NCBI GenBank assembly: GCA_001771185.1
Contig: METB01000001.1
Coordinates: forward strand, 375,200 to 439,199
Length of the DNA: 64,000 bases
Direction: 5' to 3'
Origin: a candidate division Kazan bacterium RIFCSPHIGHO2_01_FULL_44_14
GTDB taxonomy: Bacteria; Patescibacteriota; Kazan-3B-28
The notes beneath the pieces are model-generated. The model saw nothing but the letters and a program-made list of their open reading frames with translations. It was not told the origin of the DNA and ran no database searches. Each line of letters starts with the position of its first letter. Positions within the stretch are counted from its first letter, which is position 1. Both the position numbers and the translations under genes were made by a program. Below are positions 11,358 through 47,233 of the stretch, in pieces.

Positions 11358-13370
11358 TTAGCGGAGAAACAGGCCGACCGCCAACAAAGCCACGATATTA
11401 ATAATTTTAATCATCGGGTTAATCGCGGGACCGGCGGTATCTTTGTAGGGATCTCCGACCGTGTCTCCGGTCACCGCGGCAGCATGAGCAAGTGAGCCCT
11501 TCCCACCCAAGTGTCCTTCCTCAATGTATTTCTTAGCGTTATCCCAAGCCGCTCCGCCGGTAGTCATGGAAATCGCTACAAAAATGCCCGTGACAATACT
11601 CCCGACCAACAACCCCCCGAGTGCCTTGGGGCCCAACAGCCAACCCACCAACAATGGAGTGACTACTGGAAGTAATGCCGGGATAATCATCTCTCGAATC
11701 GCTGCCCGAGTAACAATGTCAACTGCTCGAGCGTAGTTAGGCCGAGCCGTCCCGTCCATAATTCCAGCGATGGTTTTAAATTGATGCCGGACTTCTTTTA
11801 CTACCGCCGCCGCGGTTTTCCCAACTGTTTCCATTGACAGGGCAGCAAACAAATAGGGGAGCAAACCTCCCAGGAACAAGCCAATTAATACCAGCGGGTC
11901 GCCCAACCCGAATTGAACTGATTGACCCTGCAGATTACTTAACTCTTGAGTGTAAGCCGAAAACAACACGATTGCGGCCAACCCAGCCGAACCAATCGCG
12001 TAACCCTTAGTCACCGCCTTAGTAGTATTCCCAATCGCATCTAGTAGATCGGTGACCTGTCGAACTTTCTCTGGAAGCCCAGCCATTGCGGCAATCCCGC
12101 CAGCATTATCGGTAATCGGACCATACGCATCCACTGCGACAATAATCCCTACCATCGACAACATGCTGACAGCGGCAATCGCCACTCCAAACAGACCAGC
12201 AAAATAGTACGCCCCAAAAATGGCTGCCGCAATTACCAACACCGGTAACGTGGTTGATTTCATCCCCACCGCCAATCCCGCGATTACATTAGTTCCATGC
12301 CCAGTTTCGGAAGCGTGAGCAATTTGTCTAACTGGGGCAAACCGGGAAGCCGTGTAGTATTCCGTAATCCAAATAATCAGCCCGGTTACTCCTAGCCCAA
12401 CCAAAGCGCAATAAAACAAATTTAAATAACTAACTCCGGCCAGATTGGCCAATAGATACCGGCTGGCTCCATAAAACCCACTTAACGCCAACACTCCGGC
12501 GACAATCAACCCTTGGTAGAGAGCACCCATAATGTTGTGGCTTTTTTTTGATAACCGTACAAACCAAGTTCCAATAATTGAAGCAATAATTGAAATCCCG
12601 CCGAGAACTAGTGGGAAAACTATCATCAGCGGATTGCCGGCAAACAAGAGCGCCGACAATACCATGGCAGCCACGATTGTAACGGCATAGGTTTCGAATA
12701 AATCAGCCGCCATCCCAGCACAATCCCCAACATTATCACCAACATTATCAGCAATTACGGCCGGGTTCCTGGGGTCATCTTCGGGGATACCGGCTTCAAC
12801 CTTACCGACCAAGTCAGCGCCAACATCCGCTCCTTTGGTGAAGATACCGCCACCGAGTCGGGCGAAGACCGAGATCAAACTTCCGCCGAAGCCCAGACCG
12901 ACCAAAGCATTGATATCATGAAAAATTGCATAAAACCCCGCCACTCCAAGCAGTCCCAACCCGACCACAAATAAACCCGTGACGGCTCCACCTCTAAATG
13001 CCACGGTCAAGGCCTGGCTTAACCCCAGTTCAGCCGCAGCCGCAGTCCTGACATTGGCTCTGACTGAAATATGCATACCAATAAATCCAGCTAATCCTGA
13101 CAGGACCGCCCCAACCAGAAACCCAACTGCCGGCAACAACCCAAGCACAACATAGAGGATAAGAGCTAGGGCTAGAGCCACTATCCCAATCGTAAAGTAT
13201 TGCCGTTTAAGATAGGCCGAAGCACCCTCTTGGATTGCCCGAGCAATTTCCATCATCTTGCTGCTGCCGGTTGGTTGGGACAAAACCCAAATTGACAGTC
13301 CACTAGCATAGAGGACGGCTAACCCACCGGTAATAATGGCGAAGATGATACTTAGGTTGGTTGGATTCAT
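11358..13370 (-). CDS. hppA: Membrane-bound proton/sodium-translocating pyrophosphatase
   Basis: Polytopic membrane protein with [18 protein letters not shown] and DTVGDPYKD motifs characteristic of H+-PPase. Confidence 0.9.
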
Positions 13371-13421: not shown

Positions 13422-14573
13422 TTACTTTTTAGGGGGCTCTGTCAGAGCCCGGCGATAAACTGCCAAAGTTTCTTTGGCCACCCGAGCGAAAGAGTATTTC
13501 TTGGCCTGACGAAAACCCTTATCCCGCAACTCTTTTTGCAGCCGGAAGGTGGTGGCTAATTTATACATGGCTTGAGCAATATCTTCAATATTAGTAGGAT
13601 CAAAATACAGGGCGGCCTCTCCCAAAACCTCCGGCATGACTGAAGTATTTGATGACAAAACCGGGATCCCTGATGCCATCGCTTCCAGCGGTGGCAATCC
13701 GAATCCTTCATAAAGTGACGGAAAAATAAAGGCCTCGGCCTCGGAATAAAAATACGGCAAATCGCTATCTGCGACATACCCAGTCAAAATCACCGCATCC
13801 TGCAAATTTAGTTGTTTAATCAGGGCCGGGATTTCTGAAGCCAAAGGATCGGCCTTCCCGACTAACACTAATTGATAATCGATATCATATCGATGTCGCA
13901 GCAGAGCAAAAGCCCGAACTAGCCGAGCTAAATTTTTGTGATGTCTTTGCTGCCCAACATACAGAAAGAAGGGACGAGAAATGTTGTATTTAGTTTTAAC
14001 CATCTCGACCTTTTTGGGGTCTTCAACTGGCTGGTACCGCTTCGGGGCTGCTTCATACACAACATCAATTTTGTCTGGGTTAATCCCCAAGTACTTTACC
14101 AAATCCCGTTTGGTCCCCTGGGAAATCGCAATAATTCGAGCCGCATTTAAACATGACTGACGAATCACATATCGATAAATAATTCGCCTAAACCAACTCG
14201 TTTGTTTCCGACCCGGGTAGAACCAAAGGGTTAGGTCGTGAATCGTCACTACACTTTTGATTCGCCGAAACCAGACCGGAGAATTAAAATTGGTGTAATG
14301 GATTAAGTCCAAACCAGCCCGGCTCAAAGCCCGGGGGTAAAGAAATTGTTCGCTGTAGGTGTAGTGAGGGAAACGAACCGCTCGCTTCTCTAGATTGGCA
14401 GCATACAGCGGGAAAAATTCGGCCACCTCGGGCAAGACAAAGACCGTAAACTTATCTTCGGTATCGAGCCGAATCAAGTTGGCGACCAGTTCTTCGGTGT
14501 AGGTACCGATTCCAGCAGCTTGGGCAGTCCCAAATAACCGAGCATCGATCCCAATCCGGTAGTGTTTATTCAT
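13422..14573 (-). CDS. Glycosyltransferase family 4 (GT-B)
   Basis: EGFGLPPLEAMASGIPV motif in the C-terminal half. Confidence 0.75.
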   Translation of the reverse strand: MNKHYRIGIDARLFGTAQAAGIGTYTEELVANLIRLDTEDKFTVFVLPEVAEFFPLYAANLEKRAVRFPHYTYSEQFLYPRALSRAGLDLIHYTNFNSPVWFRRIKSVVTIHDLTLWFYPGRKQTSWFRRIIYRYVIRQSCLNAARIIAISQGTKRDLVKYLGINPDKIDVVYEAAPKRYQPVEDPKKVEMVKTKYNISRPFFLYVGQQRHHKNLARLVRAFALLRHRYDIDYQLVLVGKADPLASEIPALIKQLNLQDAVILTGYVADSDLPYFYSEAEAFIFPSLYEGFGLPPLEAMASGIPVLSSNTSVMPEVLGEAALYFDPTNIEDIAQAMYKLATTFRLQKELRDKGFRQAKKYSFARVAKETLAVYRRALTEPPKK

Positions 14574-21451: not shown

Positions 21452-21700
21452 TTAATTGGTTTGTTTATTTAAAACTAGATCAATGCCGGGAGCCGCCCAC
21501 GGATGGCACCGCGAAACCCTAGCCATCCCCAAAAACACCCCGCGGATTACTCCATGCTGTTCGATTGATTGCTTAACATATTCGCTACAGGTTGGCTGAA
21601 GTCGACAAACCCCGGTTGGATGCCACAGTCCCGGCCAACCCTGGTGGGGGACAAGCGTGTTTTGATACAGCGTGATTGCCTTGATCAATAAAGTTTTCAT
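21452..21700 (-). CDS. yidD: Membrane protein insertion efficiency factor YidD
   Basis: CRLQPTCSEY motif and small size. Confidence 0.8.
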   Translation of the reverse strand: MKTLLIKAITLYQNTLVPHQGWPGLWHPTGVCRLQPTCSEYVKQSIEQHGVIRGVFLGMARVSRCHPWAAPGIDLVLNKQTN

Positions 21701-21999
21701 TTGATTTGATTCAGAATGCTGCCCAGTTCCGACTTAATCTGCTGGAAAGATAGGTCGAGGATTGGCTTACGAGCGATAATAATTACCCCGGTGTTAGCCG
21801 ACAGATTTTTCTGGAGAATCACCCTGATCCGACGGCGAATTTTGTTCCTGGCTGCTGCTCGCTTATCCACCTTTTGCCCAGCCACAATCCGAGGCCGGGG
21901 AGCTGGAGTTTGCTTCATATAATACACCGTAAAAGCAGGGCGGTAGATGCGTCTGCCTCGGCGCATCACTTCATCCAACCGATCGGCATCTGTTTTCAT
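21697..21999 (-). CDS. rnpA: RNase P protein component
   Basis: Basic ~100-aa protein (KVDKRAAARNKIRRRIR) located immediately downstream of rpmH. Start set at MKTDAD. Confidence 0.75.
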   Translation of the reverse strand: MKTDADRLDEVMRRGRRIYRPAFTVYYMKQTPAPRPRIVAGQKVDKRAAARNKIRRRIRVILQKNLSANTGVIIIARKPILDLSFQQIKSELGSILNQIK

Positions 22000-22015
22000 G
22001 ATAAACCCAGCGCCG

Positions 22016-22150
22016 TTAGGCGCTGATCCGTTTGCGTCCCTTGGCCCGCCGACGCTGCAACACGGCCCGTCCGTCCTTGGTTGCCATCCGGGCACGAAAG
22101 CCATGGACCCTGGCCCGCTTTATTTTTTTGGGCTGGTAAGTTCTTTTCAT
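22016..22150 (-). CDS. rpmH: 50S ribosomal protein L34
   Basis: Hand translation gives [44 protein letters not shown]. At 44 aa it is below the ORF-track cutoff. Confidence 0.9.
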
Positions 22151-22280: not shown

Positions 22281-22545
22281 TTACCTACCTAGTATAGGCA
22301 GATTTATCGGTTCAGGTCAACGAAAGTAGATGAAAGTTCGCTCCATTGTACAAATGTGGATAACTCTGATAAATTGAAGTGTGCCCCGTAGAGAAATTTT
22401 GAAAATGCTGACGCATTGTTTATTGCTCTGAGAGGATTAAAATATTGTTACGGAACACAGTTATCCCCAACGGCTGACGGTGGGGATAACCCACTCAAAA
22501 TTCTTCTAACGGGGTGTGCGACAGGGGAAATTATTGGGGAAAATT
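22281..22545. promoter_or_regulatory. Probable oriC / dnaA promoter region
   Basis: Intergenic region between rpmH and dnaA. One perfect DnaA box (TGTGGATAA) and two near-consensus boxes (TTATCCCCA, TGGGGATAA). Confidence 0.55.
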
Positions 22546-23916
22546 ATGGACGACAAGGAAAAGTTGTGGCGAGCGGTCTTGGGAGAAATTGAAGTCGGCA
22601 TGAGCCCGGCGAATTTCCAGACCTGGTTTAAAAACACCTCCCTTGATGACATCCAAGAAACCAGCGGGATAGTGATAATTCGAGTGCCAAACGACTTTAC
22701 TAAGGGTTGGTTGCAGCAAAAATATCAAAAAGAGATTCACCGCTGTCTCAACAAACACCTTGGCCGGGTGGTAGTAGTCCAATATATAGTTGGAACCAAA
22801 AGAATAGTTCCTCAAGAGGGACGCCCGACCGACGCCCAACTTCCCGCCAACGTAAAACCGATCGAAGAGGTGGTGGTTGAAACCCCGCCAGAGGGACTTA
22901 ACCCCAAACTAACCTTTGAACAGTTTGTGGTGGGGGAGAATAGTAAACTTTGTCATGCCGCCGCCGAATCAGTTGCCAGACAACCGGGGGCCAATTACAA
23001 CCCACTATTTATCTATGGCGGAGTGGGTCTGGGGAAAACCCATCTTTTGCAAGCCATCGGTAACGAGATTCTAAAAAACAATCCCAAAGCCAGGGTCACC
23101 TATATCACTTCTGAACGATTCACTAATGAAATGGTGGAGGCCATCCGGCAAAAAGAGACCAAGGGGTTCAAAGATCGATATCGCCGACTAGATTGTTTAT
23201 TAATCGACGATATCCAATTCGTTTCCGGGAAAGAGCAAACCCAAGAGGAGTTTTTCCATACCTTTAACGCTCTACACAACGCCGGGAAGCAAATCGTGAT
23301 GACTTCCGACCGACCACCGAAAGCCATCCCAGCCCTGGAAGAGCGGCTCCGGTCTCGATTTGGGTGGGGAATGACCGCCGATATTTCCGCTCCGTCCTAT
23401 GAAACCCGGCTGGCAATTCTCCAATCTAAAGCCGCTGCCCAAAAGAAAGAGGTGGCAACCGATATTTTGGAGTATATCGCCAAGTCGGTTAAAAATAATG
23501 TTCGGGAGTTGGAGGGCGCTTTGACCCGAGTTTTGGCCTTTGCTGACCTGAACAATGCCACCCCGACCCTGGATGATGCTAAAAACTTACTCGGGGGGAT
23601 TCTAAATTCCCCAGGTAAAAAAATCGTCAGACCATCAGAAATTATCCGAGCAGTCGCCAACCACTTTAATTTAAAAAAAGAGGATATCTGCGGCCGAAAA
23701 CGGACCAGAGAGGTGGTGGTCCCTAGGCAAATTTTAACTTATTTTTTAAGAGAAGAGTTGGATATGCCCTATGCCCAGATTGGTCATGAGATTGGGGGAA
23801 GGGATCACACTACAATCATCCACGACTATAACAAAATTAAAGAAACAATCATCAATAATGATAGTTTAGACCAAGAAATCACCCAAATAAAAAATAAACT
23901 TTATGTGGTGGATTGA
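22546..23916 (+). CDS. dnaA: Chromosomal replication initiator DnaA
   Basis: Walker A (GGVGLGKTHL), Walker B/sensor region and a C-terminal DNA-binding domain. An alternative GTG start exists at 22516. Confidence 0.9.
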   Translation: MDDKEKLWRAVLGEIEVGMSPANFQTWFKNTSLDDIQETSGIVIIRVPNDFTKGWLQQKYQKEIHRCLNKHLGRVVVVQYIVGTKRIVPQEGRPTDAQLPANVKPIEEVVVETPPEGLNPKLTFEQFVVGENSKLCHAAAESVARQPGANYNPLFIYGGVGLGKTHLLQAIGNEILKNNPKARVTYITSERFTNEMVEAIRQKETKGFKDRYRRLDCLLIDDIQFVSGKEQTQEEFFHTFNALHNAGKQIVMTSDRPPKAIPALEERLRSRFGWGMTADISAPSYETRLAILQSKAAAQKKEVATDILEYIAKSVKNNVRELEGALTRVLAFADLNNATPTLDDAKNLLGGILNSPGKKIVRPSEIIRAVANHFNLKKEDICGRKRTREVVVPRQILTYFLREELDMPYAQIGHEIGGRDHTTIIHDYNKIKETIINNDSLDQEITQIKNKLYVVD

Positions 23917-25219: not shown

Positions 25220-26335
25220 ATGCGTATCCAGGCCCTTCGGCTCAACCACTTCCGCAATCTAACCACTTTGGATTTGTCCTCTTTGGGTGAGGTGAATGTT
25301 TTGGTGGGGAAAAATGCTCAAGGCAAGACCAATATATTGGAGGCGATTTTCCTGGCGGCGTCGGGGGAGTCGTTTCGAGTTACCCAAGACAGATATTTAG
25401 TCCAACGCGGGGAAATTGATGCACAAGTGTTTATGGAGGCCACGACCAATGATGGTCGGGATAAGTTTGTCCAATTGTTTTGGGCGGTTGACGGGGGGAC
25501 AGTATCAAAATCGATTAAGCTGAACGCTCTGGTGGTCCCGCGAGCGGATTTAATTAAGACCATCCCGGTGGTGATTTTTTCACCGGAGGATATTGACCTG
25601 GTTCGGTTGAGCTCGGGACATCGGCGGAAGTTTTTGAATTTGGCGGTGGCCAGACACGATGCCGAATATCGGCAGGACTTAATGGAATATACTCGGATCT
25701 GGCGGCAGAGAAACCAACTATTATTACTAATCAAGCAGGGCCGAGAGTCGGAGGCGGAATTGGATGTGTGGGACAACCAATTGGCCGAGGTCGGTTCACG
25801 GATAGTTCGGAAACGGGCCGATTTTGTGTCAGACATCGCTCGGACAGTGGGTGAATATTACAAAACATTCGTACCTAATGGTAACGGGGCCGAACTTCGG
25901 TTGCGCTACGCTCCCAGTATTGGTTTGCCGAATAAAAATGATTATCTGGCGCAAATCCAAAGAGTCCGGCGGTTGGATATCGCTCGGGCAACGACAACCC
26001 ATGGGGTTCATCGAGACGATTTAGTGTTTATTTTGAATGACAGCGACATTCGGTACACGGCATCTCGGGGGGAGTTCCGCAGTGCCGTGTTGGCGTTGAA
26101 GTTGGCCGAAGGCAAATACCTGTATGGTAAGTTGGGGGACCGACCAGTGTTTTTGTTGGATGATGTTTTTTCAGAATTGGACGACGACAGAAGGGTGGCA
26201 TTGGCCGAGGAGATGAAGCAATACCAAACCTTCATTACCACCAATGACGCCAACATGGCGACATTGTTTAACCATCCAAAGGTATTTGAGGTGGTGAAAG
26301 GGGTCATCGCCACGCCGGAGACAGAAGCACAATAG
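25220..26335 (+). CDS. recF: DNA replication/repair protein RecF
   Basis: Walker A (GKNAQGKTNILEAI), an ABC/SMC signature-like region and D-loop (LLDDVFSELD). Confidence 0.85.
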   Translation: MRIQALRLNHFRNLTTLDLSSLGEVNVLVGKNAQGKTNILEAIFLAASGESFRVTQDRYLVQRGEIDAQVFMEATTNDGRDKFVQLFWAVDGGTVSKSIKLNALVVPRADLIKTIPVVIFSPEDIDLVRLSSGHRRKFLNLAVARHDAEYRQDLMEYTRIWRQRNQLLLLIKQGRESEAELDVWDNQLAEVGSRIVRKRADFVSDIARTVGEYYKTFVPNGNGAELRLRYAPSIGLPNKNDYLAQIQRVRRLDIARATTTHGVHRDDLVFILNDSDIRYTASRGEFRSAVLALKLAEGKYLYGKLGDRPVFLLDDVFSELDDDRRVALAEEMKQYQTFITTNDANMATLFNHPKVFEVVKGVIATPETEAQ

Positions 26336-26366
26336 TAGTTTCTTGTGCTCTCCGCTTTTTCATTCC

Positions 26367-26422
26367 GTCATTCCTACGAAGGCAGGAATCTTCCCCATCG
26401 TCATTCTGGCTTGTCCAGAATC
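26367..26422. repeat. Two tandem short palindromes (GTCATTC....GAATCT units)
   Basis: The units resemble the termini of the MITE family at 34524 and 35984. They sit just after the recF stop. Confidence 0.4.
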
Positions 26423-26649
26423 TTTTCAACATTCTTTTGCCACCCCATTTGCTTGCCCAAATATTATTTTGCTACCACTTTGCGTGGTCCTTGCGTGGTA
26501 GCACCGAAAGGACGGCCAGTCGTCGGGGCTATTCAATGGCTAAATCCGTGGGCGCTCTCGCTGAACTCGTCGTCCGTCAGCTGACGGACTCAAACAAGTG
26601 CCTTAAGCGACGGCGATTTTCCAAATGGCTCACGCTCGACTCCGGAGGG

Positions 26650-26700
26650 CGGATGAGGATGGGGTTACTTCTGACAAAGTGGACAGAAGTGAGTGCCGCG
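26650..26700 (-). pseudogene. Divergent duplicate of the mutM 3' end (..GRGTHFCPLCQK stop plus about 10 nt)
   Basis: About 85% nucleotide identity to 27513..27560. Minus-strand translation ends GRGTHFCPLCQK*, against GRGTHYCPICQK* in the real mutM. Confidence 0.55.
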
Positions 26701-26782
26701 ACCACTGTTTGACAAAAATCCGCTCCGGGAGTATGTTTTTGGTGTCTGTAGTTTTTGAACATTACAATCAAGGAGTGGATAG

Positions 26783-27322
26783 ATGATGGACAAGCAAGGA
26801 ACATCAGGGGTTACGTGGTGGATAGGGGTACTAATGGGGGCGGTGTTGGGAGTGGCCGTTGAGGCCCTTGTCTGCATGGTGCCGGTGGTCAATGGACTCC
26901 CGGCCGAAGTCAAAGCCACTGGCGCAGCAGACTCGGCGTTTGTTGGTGCGTTGTTTGGTGGGTGGTTGATTACAATAGGGATTGTGATCCTCCCCTTATT
27001 GGGTTATATCCCCTACTCCCTGACATCTGCCATTCGCTACTACATCGGGATGACGCCGACCGAGCGCCGGGCCTGGCGACTTCGGAGGAAGCTAGTGCGC
27101 GTCGCAGCTCGGAATAAGCGGATATTGCGCGAGGCCCAAGCTCGGGTCGAGATCGCTCGGTTGGAGGAGCAAAAGATCGCTGAACACCAAAGGACGGTCG
27201 ATGAGTTGGTCACCTGTGACCAGGAGGAGTACAAAACGGCGATGCGGATAACTCGGGCCCTTGAGCCGTCGTTAGCGGCAACGCCATCTCCCAAGCGATC
27301 TTCCCAAGCACATTTTCAGTAA
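26783..27322 (+). CDS. Hypothetical membrane protein (2 TM helices plus charged coiled-coil tail)
   Basis: A rho-independent terminator follows it. It lies inside the segment bounded by the mutM 3'-end duplicates. Confidence 0.45.
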   Translation: MMDKQGTSGVTWWIGVLMGAVLGVAVEALVCMVPVVNGLPAEVKATGAADSAFVGALFGGWLITIGIVILPLLGYIPYSLTSAIRYYIGMTPTERRAWRLRRKLVRVAARNKRILREAQARVEIARLEEQKIAEHQRTVDELVTCDQEEYKTAMRITRALEPSLAATPSPKRSSQAHFQ

Positions 27323-27393
27323 ACCCCGGATCTTCCGCGGATCTGTTTGTCGGGGGGTACCCCATCCCCTATCAAACCTTCAGTAAACCTATA

Positions 27394-27419
27394 AACCGCG
27401 GGTCTCCCGCGGTTTTTTT
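27394..27419 (+). terminator. Rho-independent terminator
   Basis: AACCGCGGG tctc CCGCGGTT hairpin followed by TTTTTTTA. Confidence 0.55.
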
Positions 27420-27519
27420 ATATCCGCCGGGTGGCGGATGATTCTATTGAATCATTTCTAGCCTCTCGACTTCGCTCGAGGTCAATGTTGACAAATCGGC
27501 CCCTCGGCTACGCTCGGGG

Positions 27520-28491
27520 TTACTTCTGACAAATTGGGCAATAGTGAGTACCTCGTCCATTGAGGCGGATTTTTTTGATGGTGCTGCCACAGCGTTTGCG
27601 GCAAGGTAGGTCTTTGCGGTCATAAGCCACGAGGTAGTTTTGCATTTGCCCCATTGCGCCCTCGGGGGTGCGGTGGGTGTTGACGCTGGTGCCCATGTAT
27701 TTGATACCTTTTTCTAAAACCTTTTTAATAGCAGAAACGAGTTTGGTGGTGTCGGCTTTGGTGATGGATTTGCCGAGTCGGGTTGGTTTGATGCCGGCGT
27801 AAAAAAGGGCTTCATCGGAATAGATATTGCCAATGCCGGTGACGAGAGATTGGTCTAAAATGATGGTTTTGATGTTGCTCTTGGGGCGACGCTGGATGGC
27901 GGAGTATAAAAAGGCGGGAGTAAAGTTTTTGTCGAACGGCTCCATCCCAAGGTTGGAAAAGAATTTGTCATTTGGGACTTCGGCGGTGGGAGTGAGTTTG
28001 ACCCAGCCGAACCGGCGTTGGTCATTGAAATAGAGATTTCCTTTACTTAACTCAAACCAAACCCGAGTGTGGCGGGACGGCATGGTTTCGATAAAGTTTT
28101 TGTCGGGATGGCCGTAGTTGAGGCGTCCTTTTTCTAATTTGTCACCCCGAACTTGTTTCAGGATCTTGGTTTTAGATGCCGAAACGAGTTCGGCATGACG
28201 AGAGTGGGGGATATAAATCAACTGCCCCGTCATTTTTAGGTGAATCAATAAAGAAAGATCTGACCCGCCCGCACTTCGAGCTGTGGCGGGTTGTTTTGCC
28301 AACGAAACAATAATGCCCTTGCCTCGACGGGTGATGTTTTTAATACTTGCCCCGCGGAGACCTTGTCTCTTTGCGGGGGTGAATCCGAGAGTGCTTCTGG
28401 CCGAGAGAATTTTGACCTGTTTAATTTTCTGCCCGACGATGTGTCGGGAGAGGCCTCTTACTACCGTCTCTACCTCGGGTAACTCTGGCAT
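27520..28491 (-). CDS. mutM: Formamidopyrimidine-DNA glycosylase (Fpg/MutM) with ~50-aa internal insertion
   Basis: MPELPEVE N-terminus with catalytic Pro2/Glu3, H2TH region, and a C-terminal zinc finger CRKRCGSTIKKIRLNGRGTHYCPICQK. Confidence 0.8.
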   Translation of the reverse strand: MPELPEVETVVRGLSRHIVGQKIKQVKILSARSTLGFTPAKRQGLRGASIKNITRRGKGIIVSLAKQPATARSAGGSDLSLLIHLKMTGQLIYIPHSRHAELVSASKTKILKQVRGDKLEKGRLNYGHPDKNFIETMPSRHTRVWFELSKGNLYFNDQRRFGWVKLTPTAEVPNDKFFSNLGMEPFDKNFTPAFLYSAIQRRPKSNIKTIILDQSLVTGIGNIYSDEALFYAGIKPTRLGKSITKADTTKLVSAIKKVLEKGIKYMGTSVNTHRTPEGAMGQMQNYLVAYDRKDLPCRKRCGSTIKKIRLNGRGTHYCPICQK

Positions 28492-28859: not shown

Positions 28860-29447
28860 TTATTTATAGTGTTTGGGGTTGTGAGTAGCTCGGGTGTGTT
28901 GATCTGTGGCAGGGGGAGTATTAAGGCGGGTTACGATCGCCCAAAAGTGGGAATACATTTTTTCTTGTGCTTCATTGGTCAAAGTATTGTTGTGCAATAT
29001 GTCATTGCGCCACTGATTTAGATCCTTTAACTTAGTGACTAACGGGGTGTCTAACCTAAGCTCCTCACGAGCGAACTCGATCTTGCCATAGAAATTGGCA
29101 GTTTTTAGAAGGAGTTTTTTAATTTTTTTCTTAACACTTGAGTCGGAGGTTACATGGGAGCTTATATAATCGTCTAGCTCCCGCTCGCATACAAAGTGGT
29201 ATAGAATGAGTTCTGTTTTTTTGATTGCGATGTTAAACAATTCACCTCCACGAACCTGCTTTTTGTAGTGATTGTTAAATACTCGGGAGGCGGTAGCAGA
29301 AGTTCTTGTGGCTCTATTTGCCAACAGTTGTTTCAAAAGAGGAGCATCCTCTATATCGTTGGTTATTGCCATAAAAACCAATGGGTAGTAGAGCTTTTTA
29401 AGCTTTTCTCGTACTCCTTGGCTATTTGGAGTAATTGCACGGCTCAT
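28860..29447 (-). CDS. Hypothetical protein with possible HEPN-like RNxxxH motif
   Basis: C-terminal WRNDILHNN fits the R-x4-6-H pattern of HEPN RNases. The start codon overlaps the stop of the polA-fragment pseudo-ORF. Confidence 0.4.
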   Translation of the reverse strand: MSRAITPNSQGVREKLKKLYYPLVFMAITNDIEDAPLLKQLLANRATRTSATASRVFNNHYKKQVRGGELFNIAIKKTELILYHFVCERELDDYISSHVTSDSSVKKKIKKLLLKTANFYGKIEFAREELRLDTPLVTKLKDLNQWRNDILHNNTLTNEAQEKMYSHFWAIVTRLNTPPATDQHTRATHNPKHYK

Positions 29448-29448: not shown

Positions 29449-29568
29449 TCTTTTTGGTTTCTCCCCAGCTTACTCCAGCTTCGACAACCACATGGATAGG
29501 GACATCGAGCTGATAGACATTTTCCATTTTGTCGCGGACGAGTTTGGTGATGGACTCTATCATTGATA
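29449..29568 (-). pseudogene. Divergent duplicate of the polA 3' end (39 codons)
   Basis: Minus-strand translation MIESITKLVRDKMENVYQLDVPIHVVVEAGVSWGETKKI* matches the PolA C-terminus KKVAKLVKDKMENVYQLDVPIHVDAEAGVNWGETKPA*. About 85% nucleotide identity to 30662..30780. Confidence 0.6.
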
Positions 29569-29826
29569 TCCTAATATTTCCAGAGTGGCCTTGACGGATG
29601 GATTAGTAGTGTTCAATAGCGTTACCCTGCCGGGGTATTTCTCGAATAACGGTCGCAGAAACTCATCCCCCCAAGAAGGAGCAAAGGCATTAACGCCGGC
29701 AAAATCAATTTCCAATGATTCGCCCGAGGAAATATCTGTAAGCTGTGATTGTAATGCCAAGGCGGCGTCTCGGCCAGCTGGTCGCGACATCAAGATGGCG
29801 CCAAATTTTTCTAATTTAATCAGCAT
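29560..29826 (-). CDS. STAS-like domain protein (DUF4325-like)
   Basis: 88 aa. ...LEIDFAGVNAFAPSWGDEFLRPLF resembles the DUF4325/STAS fold that is frequently encoded next to GHKL ATPases. Confidence 0.45.
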   Translation of the reverse strand: MLIKLEKFGAILMSRPAGRDAALALQSQLTDISSGESLEIDFAGVNAFAPSWGDEFLRPLFEKYPGRVTLLNTTNPSVKATLEILGYQ

Positions 29827-29843
29827 AACCCTAAGTCAAAGAA

Positions 29844-30590
29844 TTAGAAGTAGAGAACCGCTAGGCAGCCGCGCAAAAAGGGAGCCAGTTGAACCTTTAA
29901 ATCAGTATCATTCTGTCGTAGTTCAAGTTTCGCATCGCCGGATTGGAAAGTAAGACGCAGAGGATTTTCGGTAACCACTTTGCGGGTGAGTTTCAAGCCG
30001 TTGCCCCTCGCTTCCGGGTCGCGACCGGATATTCTTTCGGTGAAAGCGAGCCAAAGGGCGTCTTGGTGGGTTTGGAGATTAGGACGGACGCGCTGGAGGG
30101 TATGTAACACGCCTACGCCACGATCGGCCATCACTAAGTATCTATCGAAGATGCTGTAGTAGAAATAAATCCCGGGCAGGTCAGGCCAATTACCAATATT
30201 GTGGTCAAATGAATTGTTGCCAATCTCACCAGCAACAATAGTGATTAAGGGAGTTAAATAGCGTAACGTTGGCACTTTGGTTAGTTCGTAGGCCATTCGT
30301 TCTATGCGGGCAGAAAATACATCACGGGTGGCGCAGTACTGGTCTGGTGAGGGCACGATCCGATTCTCTGGCACGGTCGCCCAGTGGAGCGCGGAGTTCA
30401 CCAGGGGCGCAGTTCTTTTTAGGCGTTTGGCATAAATAGTGGCCTCGATATCTTCGGCAAGATAGTAGCGGTGCCCCGTGGCAGAGGCGCGATGGGACTT
30501 GAGTGCTCCGCTACTGTCCCAGCGTCTTAGGGTGTCCATCGAAACCCCGAGCCGTTTGGCCGCCTCGCCTATGTAGAGATGTTTAGTCAT
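29844..30590 (-). CDS. MerR/excisionase-type HTH fused to GHKL (HATPase_c) ATPase domain
   Basis: N-terminal IGEAAKRLGVSMDTLRRW helix-turn-helix. C-terminal half has an N-box-like EIGNNSFDH, DRGVGV (G1) and GRDPEARGNGLKL (G2). Confidence 0.5.
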   Translation of the reverse strand: MTKHLYIGEAAKRLGVSMDTLRRWDSSGALKSHRASATGHRYYLAEDIEATIYAKRLKRTAPLVNSALHWATVPENRIVPSPDQYCATRDVFSARIERMAYELTKVPTLRYLTPLITIVAGEIGNNSFDHNIGNWPDLPGIYFYYSIFDRYLVMADRGVGVLHTLQRVRPNLQTHQDALWLAFTERISGRDPEARGNGLKLTRKVVTENPLRLTFQSGDAKLELRQNDTDLKVQLAPFLRGCLAVLYF

Positions 30591-30661
30591 ACCTGTAATC
30601 TATGTATTTTACGACCTAATTATATCAAAATGCATAGATTGCGTCAATGGGCGAGTTGGGG

Positions 30662-32848
30662 CTAGGCAGGTTTGGTTTCGCCCCAGTTTACACCAGCTTC
30701 GGCATCGACATGGATGGGGACATCGAGCTGATAAACATTTTCCATTTTGTCCTTTACGAGTTTGGCGACCTTTTTGATGTCTTTGGTCGGGACTTCCAGC
30801 ACTAGTTCGTCGTGGACTTGGAGAAGCATTCGAGAACCTGGACTTGCTTTCGGCAGGGCTTTGGCGAGTTCAATCATGGCGACTTTCAGTAAGTCAGCGG
30901 CGGTGCCTTGGACGGGCATATTGATAGCGGCGCGGATGGAAGCGTTGCGGACGGCGGGGACTTGGGATTTAATTTCTGGGATGTAGCGACGACGGCCAAA
31001 CAAAGTTTCAACATAGCCATGCTGTTTAGCGAAGGCGGCGGTGTCGTCCATATATTGTTTGATTTCCGGATGAAGTTCGAAGTATTTATGAATATAGTTG
31101 GTGGCCTGGTGGATGGTCATATTAGTTCGAGCGGCCAGGCCGTAAGGGGAGACGCCGTAGATGATGCCGAAGTTAATCACCTTGGCATTTCGGCGCATGT
31201 CTTTGGTGACATCTTTAATTTTGACGCCGTTGACTTCAGCGGCGACGGTAGTGTGGATGTCCTCACCTTTATTGAAAGTCCGAATCATTCGCTTGTCGTG
31301 AGCGAGGGAGGCAATAACCCGCAGTTCGATTTGAGAATAATCAGCAGAGATTAACCGGAAACTCTTGGGGGCAATAAAGGCCTTGCGGATTTCGGCGCCC
31401 AAGTCAGAACGGATGGGAATGTTTTGAAGGTTGGGGTCTTTGGATGAAAGCCGTCCAGTGGAAGTGTCTTGGGCGTAAGTGGTGTGGACGCGGTTGTTTT
31501 TGTCGACTAGTTTAGGCAGGGTTTCGAGGTAGGTGTTCTTGAGTTTGGTGAGCTGACGATATTCTAAAATATGTTTGATAACAGGATGAGCGCGGTAGAT
31601 TTTTTCAAGTTCCGATACCCCGGTGGAATAGCCGGTCTTGCCAGTCAGTCGACGGCCAGGAGTTTTGGCGATATCTAAAGTTGGGAGTCCAAGGTCTTTG
31701 AATAAAAAAGTTGCCAGTTGAGCAGGGGAACTGATGTTAAATGGCTGGTCGGCGTATTTGTGGATATTCTTCTCGAGTTTTTCAATGCGAATGGAGATTT
31801 GGTCGTTTAGTTTTTTGAGCAGTTTAATGTCCAGCAAAATACCCGCTCGTTCCATTTTGCGGAGGATGGGGTCAAGTTGTTGGTCGAGGTCTTTCACGGT
31901 TTTTTTCTGGGGCCCTTTAGACCGACGGGCCTTATCAAAAAAAGATGCTTGTTTCCCAGCCGGTGGGGTTGTGAGGGTCCCGTTGGGAATTTTTTCATAG
32001 AGGGTCTTGAAGCCCATCCGCCGGAAGAATTCGGCAACTCGGAATTTATCGAAAGCGATGGCCTCGGCTTTGGCTAAATCAAGCTTGATAGGGATGGCGG
32101 TATGAATAGTGGCCAACCCCTGACTTTTGATGGCGTCCGGTTTACTCTTTTTTAATTTATCGGCGATGGTGGGAGAAATCTTCTCCAAGTTTTCATAGAT
32201 GGTTTCGATAGTCCCAAATTCTTGTAGAAGTTTGAGGGCAGTGACTTCACCAATGCCAGCCACCCCGGGGATGTTGTCAGAGGGGTCACCGCGGAGTCCT
32301 TTAAAATCGATAACTTGGTCGGGGCGGATGCCTTTGGTTTTTAAAACTTCTTCGGGGGTGTAGATGACGATATCGGAAAAACCTTTGCGCGGGGCATATA
32401 CAAAAATATGGTCGTTTACTAGTTGGAGGGCGTCCATATCACCGGTGGCAATGTAGGTATCGAGGGTGGCCGGGGCTTGCTTGGCCAATGTTCCAATAAT
32501 GTCATCCGCTTCAAAACCGTCTTTCAAAAAGACCGGGACATTGAAACTTTCGAGCAAGGCCTGAACTTCGGGGATTTGGTCGTAGAGTTCCTGGGGAGCT
32601 TTAATGCGAGTGGCCTTGTACTCAACATATTCTTTGTGGCGGAAAGTCGGGGCATTGGTATCAAAAGCCACTGCGATATAGTCGGGCTTGAGGCGGGTGT
32701 AAATGTTGATTAACATCACGGCAAAACCATAAATTGCCGTGGTGGGAGCGCCTGATGGGGAGGTGAGATTGGCACGTGAAAAAGCGTGGAAGGCACGGTG
32801 GACCAGGGCGTTGCCATCAATAAGGACTAGTTTTTTTCTAATAGTCAT
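30662..32848 (-). CDS. polA: DNA polymerase I (5'-3' exonuclease plus polymerase domains; no room for a 3'-5' exonuclease domain)
   Basis: N-terminal LVLIDGNALVHRAFHAF 5'-nuclease motif. C-terminal motif A (DYSQIELR), motif B (RRNAKVINFGIIYG) and motif C (QVHDEL). Only 728 aa. Confidence 0.9.
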   Translation of the reverse strand: MTIRKKLVLIDGNALVHRAFHAFSRANLTSPSGAPTTAIYGFAVMLINIYTRLKPDYIAVAFDTNAPTFRHKEYVEYKATRIKAPQELYDQIPEVQALLESFNVPVFLKDGFEADDIIGTLAKQAPATLDTYIATGDMDALQLVNDHIFVYAPRKGFSDIVIYTPEEVLKTKGIRPDQVIDFKGLRGDPSDNIPGVAGIGEVTALKLLQEFGTIETIYENLEKISPTIADKLKKSKPDAIKSQGLATIHTAIPIKLDLAKAEAIAFDKFRVAEFFRRMGFKTLYEKIPNGTLTTPPAGKQASFFDKARRSKGPQKKTVKDLDQQLDPILRKMERAGILLDIKLLKKLNDQISIRIEKLEKNIHKYADQPFNISSPAQLATFLFKDLGLPTLDIAKTPGRRLTGKTGYSTGVSELEKIYRAHPVIKHILEYRQLTKLKNTYLETLPKLVDKNNRVHTTYAQDTSTGRLSSKDPNLQNIPIRSDLGAEIRKAFIAPKSFRLISADYSQIELRVIASLAHDKRMIRTFNKGEDIHTTVAAEVNGVKIKDVTKDMRRNAKVINFGIIYGVSPYGLAARTNMTIHQATNYIHKYFELHPEIKQYMDDTAAFAKQHGYVETLFGRRRYIPEIKSQVPAVRNASIRAAINMPVQGTAADLLKVAMIELAKALPKASPGSRMLLQVHDELVLEVPTKDIKKVAKLVKDKMENVYQLDVPIHVDAEAGVNWGETKPA

Positions 32849-34523: not shown

Positions 34524-34630
34524 TGCTGTCATTCTGAACGTAGTGAAGAATCTAGTGATAGCGTTCTGCCACACAGCAGAACTAGATCCTTCGACTCTTC
34601 TGCTGTACAGCAGAATCGCTCAGGATGACA
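34524..34630. repeat. MITE-like ~107-bp element with TGTCATTCTGAACG / CGCTCAGGATGACA terminal IRs
   Basis: Over its internal sequence it is essentially the reverse complement of the element at 35984..36079. Its termini match the IRs of the GIY-YIG element at 40750..41112. Confidence 0.6.
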
Positions 34631-34648: not shown

Positions 34649-35974
34649 TCATTGTAGCAAACTTTTAATATACTCGCGCTCGTCGTAGGGGATGAGACCG
34701 GTTCGGGTGGCCATCATGGTTTGAGCGCCAAGCGCCAGGAACAAGACGGTGTCGTCGGGTTGGGCTTGTTCAAGCGCAAACCGGACGGCAGCTTTCCGAT
34801 CAACGATGATATAGAGGTTTTCATCTTCGTGAAACTTTTCCGGGGGAATCCCAGGGCGGATTTGATTGATAATGTCCATCGGGTCTTCGTTTCCGGGATC
34901 TTCTTCAGTCAGGATAATTGTGTCAGCAAAGTTGCTGGCAATTTTGCCAAGGACTGGACGTTTAGTTTTATCTCGATCGCCGGCTGACCCGAATACGGCG
35001 ATTAGTTTTTTGGGTGAAAACTCACGGACGGCCGAAAAGACCTTTTCAAAACCGTCTGGGGTGTGGGCATAGTCACAAATCACGGTGAATGGTTGGCCGA
35101 CCTTAATTCGGTCCATCCGGCCAGGGACGCTAGTGACACTCTCAAGCCCTTGTTTGATAATGGGGGTTGGTACTCCCAGAGCAAAGGCGGCGGAAGCGGC
35201 CGCCAAGGCGTTTTGGATATTGAATGTCCCGGGCAAGTGTAGCCGAACCGGGAGAGTTCCGGTTGGAGTCCGCATCTCAAACGAACTACCAGTCGGAGAG
35301 AGTTGAATAGCAGTGGCGGAAAGGGAGCTCTCGCGGGTCTCTAATGGTAGTTCTCTTTCAATGGTGTAATAAAAAGTATGGTCGGAAGGATACTTGGCGA
35401 GATAAGAAGAGGTCGGGTCGTCAAAATTTAACACCATAATTTTCGGGACGCCAGATTGGCGGGGTGAGGCGTATAGTTCGCGAAACAACTTGGCTTTGGC
35501 GTCGCGATACTCTTCAAAGGTTCGGTGATAGTCGAAGTGGTCTTGGGTGAGATTAGTGAAGACGGCTACATCATAGAAAATTCCCCAAGTTCGATGTTGG
35601 TTTAAAGCGTGAGACGAGGTTTCGATTACGGCGTATTTACATTTGGCGTTTACCATCCGGCGAAGCAATTTTTGGAGAGCGAAGGGGGACAGGGTGGTCA
35701 TTTTACTTTCGTTAACCCAACGCTTGTCACCAATCCAGAAGTTGACTGTCGTAGCGAGTCCGACTTTGGCCCCGCTGACGGCTAAAATATTGGCTAACAT
35801 GTTGCAGGTAGTAGTTTTCCCGTTGGTCCCGGTTACTCCAATTACGATTAGTTTTTGAGAGGGGAAGCCGCTTAGAGTTGAAGCCAAAACTCCTCTACCT
35901 TTGTGGTAGGTGTTGTAGAGAAAAGTGTCGGGGGCGAAGGCCCGGCCAAGAATTTTTTTGAGGAGATATTTCAT
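34649..35974 (-). CDS. Mur ligase family protein (MurE/Mpl-like)
   Basis: GVTGTNGKTTT P-loop and Mur ligase middle and C-terminal domains. Start is ambiguous among 35974, 35989 and 36052. Confidence 0.6.
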   Translation of the reverse strand: MKYLLKKILGRAFAPDTFLYNTYHKGRGVLASTLSGFPSQKLIVIGVTGTNGKTTTCNMLANILAVSGAKVGLATTVNFWIGDKRWVNESKMTTLSPFALQKLLRRMVNAKCKYAVIETSSHALNQHRTWGIFYDVAVFTNLTQDHFDYHRTFEEYRDAKAKLFRELYASPRQSGVPKIMVLNFDDPTSSYLAKYPSDHTFYYTIERELPLETRESSLSATAIQLSPTGSSFEMRTPTGTLPVRLHLPGTFNIQNALAAASAAFALGVPTPIIKQGLESVTSVPGRMDRIKVGQPFTVICDYAHTPDGFEKVFSAVREFSPKKLIAVFGSAGDRDKTKRPVLGKIASNFADTIILTEEDPGNEDPMDIINQIRPGIPPEKFHEDENLYIIVDRKAAVRFALEQAQPDDTVLFLALGAQTMMATRTGLIPYDEREYIKSLLQ

Positions 35975-35983
35975 GGTTTGTTT

Positions 35984-36079
35984 TGTCATCCTGAGCGGAA
36001 ACGAAGGATCTAGTTCTGCTGTACAGCAGAACGCTATCGCTAGATTCTTCATCCCGGCAGGCCGGGATTCAGAATGACG
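35984..36079. repeat. MITE-like ~96-bp element, inverted copy of 34524..34630
   Basis: TGTCATCCTGAGCG terminus. Internal ...ctagttctgctgtacagcagaacgctatcgctagattcttca... is the reverse complement of element A. Confidence 0.6.
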
Positions 36080-37204: not shown

Positions 37205-37481
37205 CCCGTTAGAGACCAGATAGTATGTACTATGTCTATATATCGCGTAGTAGTAAGTCGGGCCGGTTGTATACTGGGTTTACTTCCAATCTACGGAAAC
37301 GCCCGATAGTGCATAGTAGTAATATGGGTGGTTACACTTCTGGCCGTGGGCCTTATCGTTTGGTTTACTACGAGGCGTGTAACAACATTGAGGACGCTTT
37401 GGCGCGTGAGTTGTATTTAAAGTCAGGTATGGGTAAGAGATATATAAAAAATCGTATTCGGCGTTTCCTGTCTCTAACGGG
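37205..37481 (+). mobile_element. GIY-YIG element bounded by perfect 12-bp IRs CCCGTTAGAGAC / GTCTCTAACGGG
   Basis: The IRs flank the GIY-YIG ORF. The same IR core bounds the non-coding mini-elements at 21325, 22151, 46451 and 47234. Confidence 0.55.
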
Positions 37482-37485
37482 ATGA
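37225..37485 (+). CDS. GIY-YIG nuclease family protein (COG2827/UPF0213-like)
   Basis: MYYVYISRSSKSGRLYTGFTSNLRKR matches the GIY-YIG core (YVY...G.LY.G.T.NL..R). Two paralogs lie elsewhere in the window. Confidence 0.7.
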   Translation: MYYVYISRSSKSGRLYTGFTSNLRKRPIVHSSNMGGYTSGRGPYRLVYYEACNNIEDALARELYLKSGMGKRYIKNRIRRFLSLTG

Positions 37486-40704: not shown

Positions 40705-40749
40705 GATTAGGATTTCGGTTTGTTTTTATATTGTTCCAAGGTGTCTTTT

Positions 40750-41112
40750 TTGTCATCCCGAGCGCAGTCGAGGGATCTGGCTATGAGTGCGAGACAATAC
40801 TATGTTTATATCTTGGCGAACCATAGTCGGGTTTTATATATTGGTGTAACCAATAATTTGACGCGACGGGTATACGAGCATAATCATGATTTAGTCCCGG
40901 GTTTTACACGCAAGTATAAAATTCATCGGTTGGTTTATCAGGAACATTGTGACGACGTTGAAAACGCTATTGCCAGAGAAAAACAGTTGAAAAATTGGAG
41001 ACGAGACAAGAAAGTAGCTTTAATTAACCGAATCAACCCAGAGTGGGAAGATTTGGTAGGTGTAGTAACGGGCTAGATCCCTCGATTCGCTCCGCTCACT
41101 CGGGATGACAAA
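40750..41112 (+). mobile_element. GIY-YIG element bounded by ~29-bp IRs TTGTCATCCCGAGCG..CGAGGGATCT
   Basis: The left IR (40750..40778) and right IR (41075..41112) are reverse complements. The termini match the MITE family at 34524 and 35984. Confidence 0.55.
40783..41076 (+). CDS. GIY-YIG nuclease family protein
   Basis: MSARQYYVYILANHSRVLYIGVTNNLTRRVYEHN matches the GIY-YIG core. Confidence 0.7.
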   Translation: MSARQYYVYILANHSRVLYIGVTNNLTRRVYEHNHDLVPGFTRKYKIHRLVYQEHCDDVENAIAREKQLKNWRRDKKVALINRINPEWEDLVGVVTG

Positions 41113-46450: not shown

Positions 46451-46532
46451 CCCGTTAAAAATTTTTACTAATGTATGTGTATTGCATCTTGGTGGTCTGT
46501 TGTTTGTGCCCGTTTTCTAGATTTTTAACGGG
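46451..46532 (-). promoter_or_regulatory. Conserved ~85-nt leader element with 12-bp IR (CCCGTTAAAAAT / ATTTTTAACGGG), copy 1
   Basis: About 85% identical to 47234..47320. Ends ...TAACGGG directly at the ATG of the VirB4 gene. Confidence 0.5.
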
Positions 46533-46540
46533 ACAGGTAG

Positions 46541-47233
46541 TTATTGTCCTGGGTTGGTATCCTTAATATGCTGGATGACTGAAACATCGACATTACTGAC
46601 CGAAAATAGTTTTTGTCTCCGGGCGGTATCAGTATTGTAGGTAGTATAGAACAGCTCAATCAATTCTTGAGTGTTGAGTTGGACATTATGCAACCCCAGC
46701 CCAGCCAGACCAGACGAGGCCAAGGAAGTCCGTTCCATCAACTTGGTTTTAACTTCCTCAAATCGGCCACCCAATGAAACCGGCCCACTCTTTTTACCAA
46801 AAAGTCCAGCCAGAAATCCGCCGGTAGGGAGTTCGACGCCGGTATCGTAGGGGATAACTAGATAGAAGGTTTTACTCATGATGTTAGCGACACCGATGAG
46901 TTCGCGGACGAAGTTGGTGTACTCGGTAGTTTGAGTTCGAAGCAGGTCATTGGTTTGTTGACGGCTAAGGGTGTCGAGTTGGGCCAAGTAATTGTCCAAA
47001 TCCAACATTCGGGACTGGACAACGATTTGGATTGGGAATCCTAGGCCGTTGAGAAAGGCCTGGTACTGCTGCATCATCGCTTCTTGTTCGTCCCTGGATT
47101 TGAGGTTGAAGTTGATGGCGTTGACCATCAATACAGTCCGAAATCCGCCGGTCTTTAAAATCACTATCCCATCGCGGACTTCCTTGATAGGTAGGTACTT
47201 TTGAGTACTGTTGGGCTGCTTTGATTTAGCCAT
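46541..47233 (-). CDS. VirB4 N-terminal-domain paralog (no ATPase domain)
   Basis: LPIKEVRDGIVILKTGGFRTVLMVNAINF... parallels the VirB4 N-terminus SIRDLVAPASMEIKNDSIELNGRFVRTLFVLTYP... The same leader element precedes it. Confidence 0.4.
   Translation of the reverse strand: MAKSKQPNSTQKYLPIKEVRDGIVILKTGGFRTVLMVNAINFNLKSRDEQEAMMQQYQAFLNGLGFPIQIVVQSRMLDLDNYLAQLDTLSRQQTNDLLRTQTTEYTNFVRELIGVANIMSKTFYLVIPYDTGVELPTGGFLAGLFGKKSGPVSLGGRFEEVKTKLMERTSLASSGLAGLGLHNVQLNTQELIELFYTTYNTDTARRQKLFSVSNVDVSVIQHIKDTNPGQ

Follow-up and report, generated by a model that had tools for sequence, protein, structure and literature searches.

At the rhs, contact-dependent inhibition (CDI) and type VI secretion system (T6SS) effector loci of bacteria, genes undergo '3'-end (C-terminal) displacement', a process ascribed to homology-facilitated illegitimate recombination (Kirchberger et al. 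2017, PMC5361080, where the work of Jackson et al. 2009 on rhs is cited). The H47 genomic island of E. coli moves by what its authors termed 'parasitic' mobility (Azpiroz et al. 2011, PMC3191183; Azpiroz & Lavina 2017, PMC5426353). Other elements target the end of a gene and bring a replacement for it, among them the tRNA/tmRNA islands and the elements of the dusA-specific integrase family (PMC4482086), and their integrase-less derivatives are known as cis-mobilisable elements (CIMEs; reviewed in PMC5704250). Here we describe a 64-kb stretch of DNA (hereafter 'the window', 64,000 nucleotides of contig METB01000001.1), the replication-origin region of a Kazan-group bacterium of the Candidate Phyla Radiation (CPR, or Patescibacteria), in which an 808-bp segment carrying one gene lies between two copies of the 3' coding tail of mutM. 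The feature is real and is best read as an insertion with displacement of the gene tail, of a kind that recurs in the Kazan group.

As in 3'-end displacement, foreign material separates an intact gene from a displaced piece of its 3' end in which conserved sequence persists, arrays can form by repeated events, a conserved anchor provides the homology and the element bears no recombinase. At the rhs, CDI and T6SS loci, however, what is swapped is a toxin domain, variable and accompanied by its immunity gene, and the protein is changed, whereas here the target is a housekeeping repair enzyme that stays essentially the same protein, no more than 13-39 codons are displaced, and the cargo gene is unrelated and, in the mutM cases, lies on the opposite strand. 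H47 is likewise a small island with imperfect but extensive direct repeats, no recombinase of its own and recombination in segments of identity; it differs in its size of 13 kb, in repeats that are not reported there as the ends of housekeeping genes, and in that its excision and integration are experimentally RecA-independent, whereas the element described here is known from its sequence alone. With the tRNA/tmRNA and dusA islands (the latter targeting the 5' end of their gene) the locus shares direct repeats derived from the end of the target and a substitute end that keeps the target intact, and with CIMEs it shares the lack of an integrase, possible tandem accumulation and att-like (attachment-site) repeats without recombination genes. 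In contrast to these elements, no cognate integrase or integrase-bearing partner was found for it in the window or the fetched loci, its inserts of 0.8-1.1 kb are far below the typical island, and its repeats are variable in length and specific to each host. Two hallmarks of a self-encoded integrative element, target-derived direct repeats and an unoccupied site, are present, and a third, an integrase inside the element, is absent. Integron cassettes offer a further parallel, forming promoter-proximal arrays of one- or two-gene cassettes that lack a recombinase of their own and often carry orphan cargo, but the Kazan locus has neither attC-type imperfect palindromes nor intI, its repeats are host coding tails and its cassettes have their own promoters. 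The closest known relatives of the locus are 3'-end displacement arrays, integrase-less repeat-flanked islands and cis-mobilisable elements; what sets it apart from them is its size, its cargo and its choice of target, the tails of housekeeping genes beside the origin.

A displaced mutM tail

Two direct repeats of 47 nt, 26661-26707 and 27516-27562, are identical at 39/47 positions (83%) and lie 855 bp apart from start to start. In each, 1 nt of a further codon precedes 13 sense codons, and the stop codon is followed by another 4 nt that read CCCC on the coding strand. The initial annotation of the window had recognised this duplication of the mutM end, stop codon included; its approximate figures (a distance of ~850-870 bp, ~85% identity, 13-14 codons and ~10 nt downstream) are corrected here to 855 bp, 83%, 13 codons and 4 nt. 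The features of the locus are as follows.

26336-26660: non-coding element E1, bounded by recF and the distal tail; in the closest relative (L001) the collinear DNA lies downstream of mutM
26661-26707, minus strand: distal copy, read as the displaced mutM tail, preceding codon Ser, translating to SGRGTHFCPLCQK and stop
26661-26678 and 27516-27533: 18-nt block GGGGTTACTTCTGACAAA, shared without mismatch by the two copies and L001; candidate site of the crossover
26708-27515, plus strand: insert of 808 bp, with no counterpart in L001 or any other locus
26709-26737, plus strand: promoter-like TTGACA-17-TATGTT, starting 1 nt inside the insert
26770-26775, plus strand: putative ribosome-binding site AAGGAG, 7 nt ahead of the ATG
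26783-27322, plus strand: cargo open reading frame (ORF), 179 amino acids (aa), orphan
27393-27422, plus strand: terminator-like 10-bp GC-rich hairpin (27393-27415) and T run
27516-27562, minus strand: proximal copy, the end of the working mutM, preceding codon Asn, translating to NGRGTHYCPICQK and stop
27520-28491, minus strand: mutM (Fpg), 323 aa, intact, with the Pfam domains Fapy_DNA_glyco, H2TH and zf-FPG_IleRS

Alignment of the two segments leaves little room for coincidence, with a BLAST E value of 3e-5 when the whole window is compared with itself and of 2e-8 within +/-8 kb. Among 176 loci the exact 18-mer is found only in the window, in L001 and in a separately assembled ENA contig (L161), and within the window it occurs only at the two repeat positions; ~0.04 matches with up to 3 mismatches would be expected in shuffled sequence. 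All 8 mismatches between the tails fall in the remaining 29 nt and none in the 18-nt block (P = 0.014). The ENA contig is 99.9% identical to the window across 26592-28224 and holds both copies, which, together with a longest common run of just 18 nt, makes a faulty assembly join implausible. A larger mutM pseudogene or decayed paralogue, the alternative that the initial annotation had itself raised, is ruled out: when three mutM proteins were compared with 26000-27519 by tblastn the sole match was the 13-aa tail (E about 1e-5), and this tail is all that the interval between recF and mutM yields.

That the segment is an insertion, as had been proposed for an ~850-bp stretch, is borne out by the closest genome found, 'candidate division Kazan bacterium RIFCSPLOWO2_01_FULL_48_13' (L001), whose MutM protein is 65% identical. 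There mutM is intact, and the non-coding DNA directly after it aligns with E1 (window 26367-26660); the alignment continues through the distal tail and ends exactly at 26707/26708, beyond which L001 goes on with mutM codons that match the window gene from 27563. The distal copy thus occupies the position of the L001 mutM terminus, and nothing in L001 corresponds to the 808 bp, which identifies the segment as an insertion and the distal copy as a former end of mutM. This unoccupied site is seen in a distant relative rather than a sister strain; closer relatives with an empty site were found neither in a scan of genomes (best mutM identity 65%) nor in a scan of metagenomes (best 52%). Agreement with L001 is perfect over the 109 nt of window 26570-26678, which include the 18-nt block, and then breaks down, with 5/29 mismatches over 26679-26707 (P = 3e-4).

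The differences between the two tails are not those of random decay. They comprise four synonymous and three conservative codon changes (N/S, Y/F and I/L), and the CxxC motif and all zinc-finger residues are kept in both; under neutrality, 8 differences would give three or fewer amino acid changes in 3.7% of cases and changes as conservative as these in 0.05%. The two tails look like the ends of two working alleles rather than a gene end and its decayed local copy. With the L001 tail the gene copy shares 83% identity, in keeping with the 78% identity of the last 424 nt of mutM, and the distal copy 89%, a difference (89 vs 83%) that is not significant at such length. The repeats do not form the variable and template repeats (VR/TR) of a diversity-generating retroelement (DGR), for there is no reverse transcriptase in the window and 3/8 of the mutM mismatches and most of those at polA are not at adenines; a true DGR pair, in L046, was used for comparison. 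Two inverted matches considered as fold-back signatures, one of 10 nt (AAAAATCCGC at 26714-26723 against GCGGATTTTT at 27565-27574) and one of 22 nt and 77% identity (26657-26678 against 27346-27367, among many similar pairs), are at chance level. Inspection revealed no convincing motif common to the mutM and polA repeats.

The insert differs from its surroundings in composition, with a GC content of 0.546 (0.57 in the ORF, and 0.64 at its third codon positions) against 0.476 for the window and 0.49 for mutM. Hydrophobic segments span residues 8-41 and 50-81 of its cargo, which also has a long charged helix; this hydropathy, with the hairpin and T run downstream, agrees with the description of the gene in the initial annotation as a plus-strand, 179-aa, two-transmembrane (TM) protein gene with its own terminator. 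An AlphaFold2 model predicts three helices at a confidence (pLDDT) of 76, too simple a structure for fold comparison. No homologue was found among 5.8 billion clustered proteins (word-indexed search), 1.84 billion representatives (exhaustive search) or viral contigs, and there was no match in Pfam, PHROG or PADLOC; the sole match in the protein searches was a 99% identical copy from the same organism. In the reading that we favour, the 808 bp would be a horizontally acquired, self-contained, one-gene cassette, made up of promoter, ribosome-binding site, a gene for an orphan membrane/coiled-coil protein and terminator.

The polA parallel

The same architecture occurs a second time in the window, at polA, as the initial annotation had pointed out; there the repeats (29453-29550 and 30671-30768) are 98 nt long and 87% identical, and the features are these.

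28860-29447, minus strand: gene of 195 aa
29444-29563, minus strand: displaced polA tail (repeat core 29453-29550), readable as a 39-codon ORF, with ATGA overlaps at both ends
29560-29826, minus strand: STAS/DUF4325 gene (Pfam)
29567-30651, minus strand: MerR-GHKL and STAS cassette with its own promoter and a palindromic operator-like sequence
29844-30590, minus strand: MerR helix-turn-helix (HTH)/GHKL-like gene (Pfam)
30662-32848, minus strand: polA
30671-30768, minus strand: polA 3' coding tail, proximal copy

The polA case is stronger than the mutM case, as the same MerR-STAS cassette lies between polA-tail repeats in several genomes: in L001 (54 nt, 96% identical), and in L162/L163 (68 nt, 94%) and L164 (34 nt, 91%), syntenic relatives to which the MerR-like protein led. 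Each time the repeats are similar to the polA of the same genome, and the codons at which they start differ. The cassette is not present in L002, a Patescibacteria metagenome-assembled genome that is close to L001 and the next closest to the window (mutM 64% aa identity). With its counterparts in L162 and L164 the window cassette shares 83% of its nucleotides (MerR 85%, STAS 91% aa), over a stretch that leaves out the polA tails, while the L162 backbone is 66-69% identical to the window in nucleotides and 36-58% in amino acids; a cassette more similar than its backbone has moved horizontally while landing at the same gene tail. The window polA tails differ by six synonymous and six replacement codon changes from 14 nucleotide differences (P = 0.011), one of them a K-to-R change that requires three nucleotide changes. 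Furthermore, the displaced tail keeps the original stop codon, overlapping the start of the 195-aa gene (ATGA), and is thus the former polA terminus. In L164 the order is the end of another STAS-like gene, a polA tail, the cassette and a second polA tail, an arrangement that suggests a tandem array.

The displaced polA tail is readable as a small ORF in the relatives too (L162 11039-11126, L001 8400-8480, L164 1207-1260), with its ATG at or overlapping the STAS stop in all four genomes. The ATGA arrangement hints at a translational-coupling relay or at a translated polA C-terminal peptide. The adjoining 195-aa gene has no Pfam match and one PHROG match of unassigned function, and it carries an R-x4-H motif (RNDILH) as in HEPN nucleases; DUF3800 and NYN genes occupy the same place in relatives. 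With these genes and the MerR-GHKL/STAS pair, the interval between polA and mutM looks like a small, variable, defence-like island.

Recurrence among CPR genomes

A search of 158 further CPR mutM loci, each for a second copy of its own tail, turned up one in L042 only, where 43 nt are 86% identical with five synonymous differences and one nonsense difference. This repeat brackets a segment of roughly 550 bp with one 136-aa gene on the opposite strand, the layout of the window in a distant CPR genome. A wider survey for direct repeats covering the stop codon of a gene, of the sort that the initial annotation had called for, took in 2.38 Mb of loci with 2,074 genes of at least 120 aa, and its coding-tail duplicates were those of mutM and polA in the window, polA and a SIMPL gene in L001, polA in L162/L163 and mutM in L042. 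The tail of the L001 SIMPL gene (116 nt, 99%) is repeated around an opposite-strand radical-SAM gene, on a scaffold that contains Ns. Left out of the count were repeats outside coding tails, next to holA (L066, L105) and recQ (L072), and a real DGR VR/TR pair in L040/L046. About six events in ~127 kb of Kazan origin-proximal loci, against one in ~2.2 Mb elsewhere, show a pattern concentrated in those loci, in a sample in which the effects of lineage and locus are inseparable. Across the cases the repeats are 34-116 nt long and made from each host's own sequence. The proposal of a recurrent integration mechanism directed at gene termini thus holds as regards recurrence, at polA, SIMPL and the L042 mutM; a dedicated mechanism is not supported, as no recombinase was found in the inserts or the window ORFs scanned and the repeats are variable and host-specific.

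The MerR-STAS module is widespread in CPR genomes (4,965 matches) in varied contexts. In L165 it adjoins tRNA-Gln, with a 37-nt direct repeat that overlaps the 3' end of the tRNA, and in L168 it has flanking repeats of 34 nt; no repeats bracketing it were found in L166, L167 or L169-L172.

Proposed recombination at gene tails

A Pfam scan that covered nearly all window ORFs of at least 110 aa found no integrase, transposase or reverse-transcriptase domain in any ORF scanned. The inserts themselves hold no recombinase, the 808 bp being a single ORF and the polA cassette MerR-GHKL and STAS only, and a cognate integrase was found neither in the 64-kb window nor among the called genes of L162-L164. 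No viral contig contained the 18-mer, as a phage attachment site (attP) would. The mutM gene, on the other hand, has a history of exchange. L001 and L002 are 78-93% identical in amino acids across the dnaA, dnaN, recF, dciA, polA, SIMPL and Mur ligase genes and 64% in mutM, and when the window gene is compared with theirs in blocks of 40 codons (window 27520-28491, L001 10001-11038, L002 6053-7036), some blocks are closer to L002 (75% vs 45%) and others to L001 (87.5% vs 55%). Judging from these comparisons, mutM is mosaic and has been horizontally replaced among Kazan lineages, and mosaicism between lineages is what 3'-end displacement leads one to look for in an anchor gene. Ordinary homology-anchored recombination would then suffice as an alternative to a site-specific integrase. 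The mutM genes of L162 and L164 are very different, at 35-37% identity.

With no recombinase and a mosaic mutM, we favour homology-anchored recombination by host functions: the cassette would have entered at the extreme 3' end of mutM on short conserved homology, displacing the tail, a reading to which we give a probability of roughly 55%. Recombination within the conserved zinc-finger-coding tail would leave two tails, one completing mutM and the other (26661-26707) displaced and still joined to its former downstream DNA, E1. One possible route is an import anchored by homology, on the lines of homology-facilitated illegitimate recombination or '3'-end displacement'; another is a crossover of Campbell type ('ends-in') in the identical 18 bp, and a mismatch-free 18-nt block is what a crossover in the longest stretch of identity would leave behind. 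A fragment that starts in one tail and ends in the other would be, topologically, a circle cut within its homology, and ordinary recombination could then insert it into a naive genome and recreate the duplication. The tail copies around the cassette would thereby serve as homology arms for transfer to relatives, which would explain the polA-tail cassette in several Kazan genomes. The order of events, the identity of the tail that would have come with the insert and the enzymology are inferred.

Several points weigh against this reading. No donor sequence, empty-site strain or circular form was found among the sequences searched, and the direction and mechanism are deduced. In its classical form, homology-facilitated illegitimate recombination as a rule deletes DNA of the recipient instead of duplicating it, and imperfect homology over 18-47 nt is close to, or short of, what RecA-mediated exchange usually requires. 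In four genomes the polA cassette has its right junction always at the STAS stop, with the ATGA overlap, which is more regular than random illegitimate joins would be. The neutral-decay simulation overstates significance if one copy was under selection while only the other decayed, and yet the direction of the substitution-pattern result is still clear. Finally, E1 is 100% identical to L001 where the backbone genes are 66-70% identical, which implies that the 'resident' flank too was exchanged recently.

Could the insert instead be the integrase-less passenger of a site-specific recombinase encoded elsewhere, that is, a cis-mobilisable element or satellite? In that case the att core would be the 18-bp block at the mutM stop codon, attL and attR would be the two tails, and attP would include the 29 mutM-like nt that adjoin the insert. 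The identical block at the same end of both copies and in L001 speaks for this, as do the apparent reuse of the site (by E1 in L001 and the window, and by the cassette in the window), the apparent tandem cassettes of L164, each followed by a polA tail as in accretion, and the MerR-STAS module of L165 beside tRNA-Gln, a classic integrase target, with its 37-nt repeat. But no integrase was found in the 64-kb window or the fetched Kazan loci, the viral contig collection lacks the 18-mer, the polA repeats have no terminal block of identity and vary between genomes in length and starting point, and related cassettes sit at unrelated targets (a polA tail, tRNA-Gln, an intergenic site) between repeats of local sequence, a poor fit to one sequence-specific enzyme; we regard the passenger as on balance unlikely. 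A broader proposal, which is doubtful, is that Kazan genomes capture cassettes at the 3' coding tails of origin-proximal genes (SIMPL, polA, mutM) in an integron-like manner, without attC or a recognisable integrase. Each insertion would duplicate or replace the tail and so build arrays of small cassettes with defence-like or orphan genes, the driver being an undescribed enzyme or repeat-mediated 'ends-in' homologous recombination and the tails both product and vehicle of transfer; the repeats, being direct coding tails, contain no attC-type palindromes, and no integrase domain was found in the window.

The newcomer might also have been E1, as a mobile or lately transferred element with a mutM tail from its previous host attached, landing between recF and a pre-existing 179-aa gene. 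E1 is far closer to L001 (97-100% identity) than the backbone is, it has a partial paralogue at 63036-63089 while related palindromes are repeated in L001, and dciA is missing from the window, so that the junction must have been remodelled. Yet the mismatches to L001 jump from 0/109 to 5/29 exactly at the 18-nt block, which implies that E1 and the 29-nt piece of tail lack one common recent origin; the compositionally deviant part is the cargo, which has no relative anywhere searched; and no second copy of the block was seen at the other end of E1. We consider this account decidedly improbable. Local duplication of the mutM tail by slippage or template switching, followed by decay and by an unrelated event that filled in the 808 bp, would suit direct repeats less than 1 kb apart, but the substitutions are synonymous or conservative rather than random, the distal copy is nearer to the L001 tail (89%) than to its own neighbour (83%), and the intervening DNA is foreign in composition; such a history is very hard to credit. 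As for chance similarity, or a metagenome assembly artefact that strung together two strain variants, the genome is indeed a metagenome-derived CPR genome, and distant mutM orthologues reach 82-85% identity over 34-39 nt. The local E value, the single mutM in the window, a common run of 18 nt that is too short to join assembly graphs, the separately assembled contig with the same structure and the recurrence of the architecture in several other assemblies leave this next to no probability.

The genomes of CPR bacteria are tiny and have few recognisable mobile elements, and how they gain genes is poorly understood. In the locus described here, one-gene and two-gene modules have been slotted repeatedly into the ends of essential or conserved genes by the origin, with the host gene undamaged and without an integrase in the insert. 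If short conserved homology drives the process, conserved gene tails would be universal landing pads for gene flow between quite divergent lineages, and the mosaic mutM alleles would be explained as well; if a hidden recombinase is responsible, it would represent a new targeting system. Tail duplicates could also provide a simple sequence signature for recent acquisitions where island finders based on integrases or tRNAs see nothing.

The origin region and element E1

The remaining genes of the origin region are as follows.

21697-22104, minus strand: rnpA
22516-23916, plus strand: dnaA
24079-25212, plus strand: dnaN
25220-26335, plus strand: recF

The backbone proteins of the window are about equidistant from those of L001, L002 and L162 (dnaA 56-58%, dnaN 44-46%, recF 36-37% and polA 56-66% aa identity). 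In L001, L002, L162 and L163, dciA (DUF721) follows recF; it was found neither at 26335-26400 nor elsewhere in the 64-kb window, and its absence from this position means that the recF-side junction has been remodelled too.

E1 (window 26336-26678, L001 10996-11374) consists of two 97-100% identical blocks around a middle that cannot be aligned and folds, at the same position in either genome, into a hairpin. A related palindrome, GTCCGTCAGCTGACGGAC, occurs three times in L001, one of them in frame inside mutM. Rfam searches of E1 and the insert at E <= 1, E <= 10 and the gathering thresholds returned a terminator-driven false match to His_leader and noise, ARAGORN found no tRNA in either, their fold z-scores were modest (-1.7 and -2.0), and a search through the spurious ORF of E1 gave no matches elsewhere. 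E1 may be a recently exchanged element resembling repetitive extragenic palindromes (REP) or miniature inverted-repeat transposable elements (MITE), or could instead be an undescribed structured RNA.

Other repeats and neighbouring modules

Small stand-alone genes with a GIY-YIG nuclease domain (37225-37485 and 40720-41076) bracket tsaD and leuS in the window, and on another CPR contig a GIY-YIG gene lies near the MerR-STAS module; such genes might supply DNA breaks that stimulate local recombination. Further along the window, a 110-nt direct repeat of 81% identity (46436-46545 and 47220-47327) duplicates a gene junction: 5 nt from the end of one gene, the spacer that follows it and ~14 nt from the start of the gene after that. 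Between the two copies, in a PrgI / VirB4-TraG-like cluster, lies a 230-aa gene without a Pfam match; here too a duplicated junction surrounds one gene. A tRNA-Ser(gct) and ~130 nt upstream of it are duplicated as tRNA-Ser(tga) (55518-55738 and 56244-56475, 72-79% identical), and the pair brackets a tadA-like deaminase gene at 55744-56205. There is also an inverted repeat of 50 nt (92%), with one arm just downstream of a Mur ligase gene (34649-36052) at 34544-34593 and the other inside the first codons of that gene at 36002-36051.

In another CPR lineage (L173-L176), a HicAB cassette lies between 139-nt direct repeats (76%; 1973-2111 and 2706-2841) and a Fic gene between 63-nt repeats (81%; 4226-4288 and 5535-5596); both have a RelBE pair and a MerR-STAS module for neighbours, follow a VirB4-like gene and form a repeat-delimited cassette array. 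The 125-nt repeat of L046 (85.6%; 13168-13292 and 13650-13774; also in L040) belongs to a diversity-generating retroelement in a Saccharibacteria contig; one of its copies lies at the 3' end of a 256-aa gene, its partner beside a reverse transcriptase and an Avd-like ORF.

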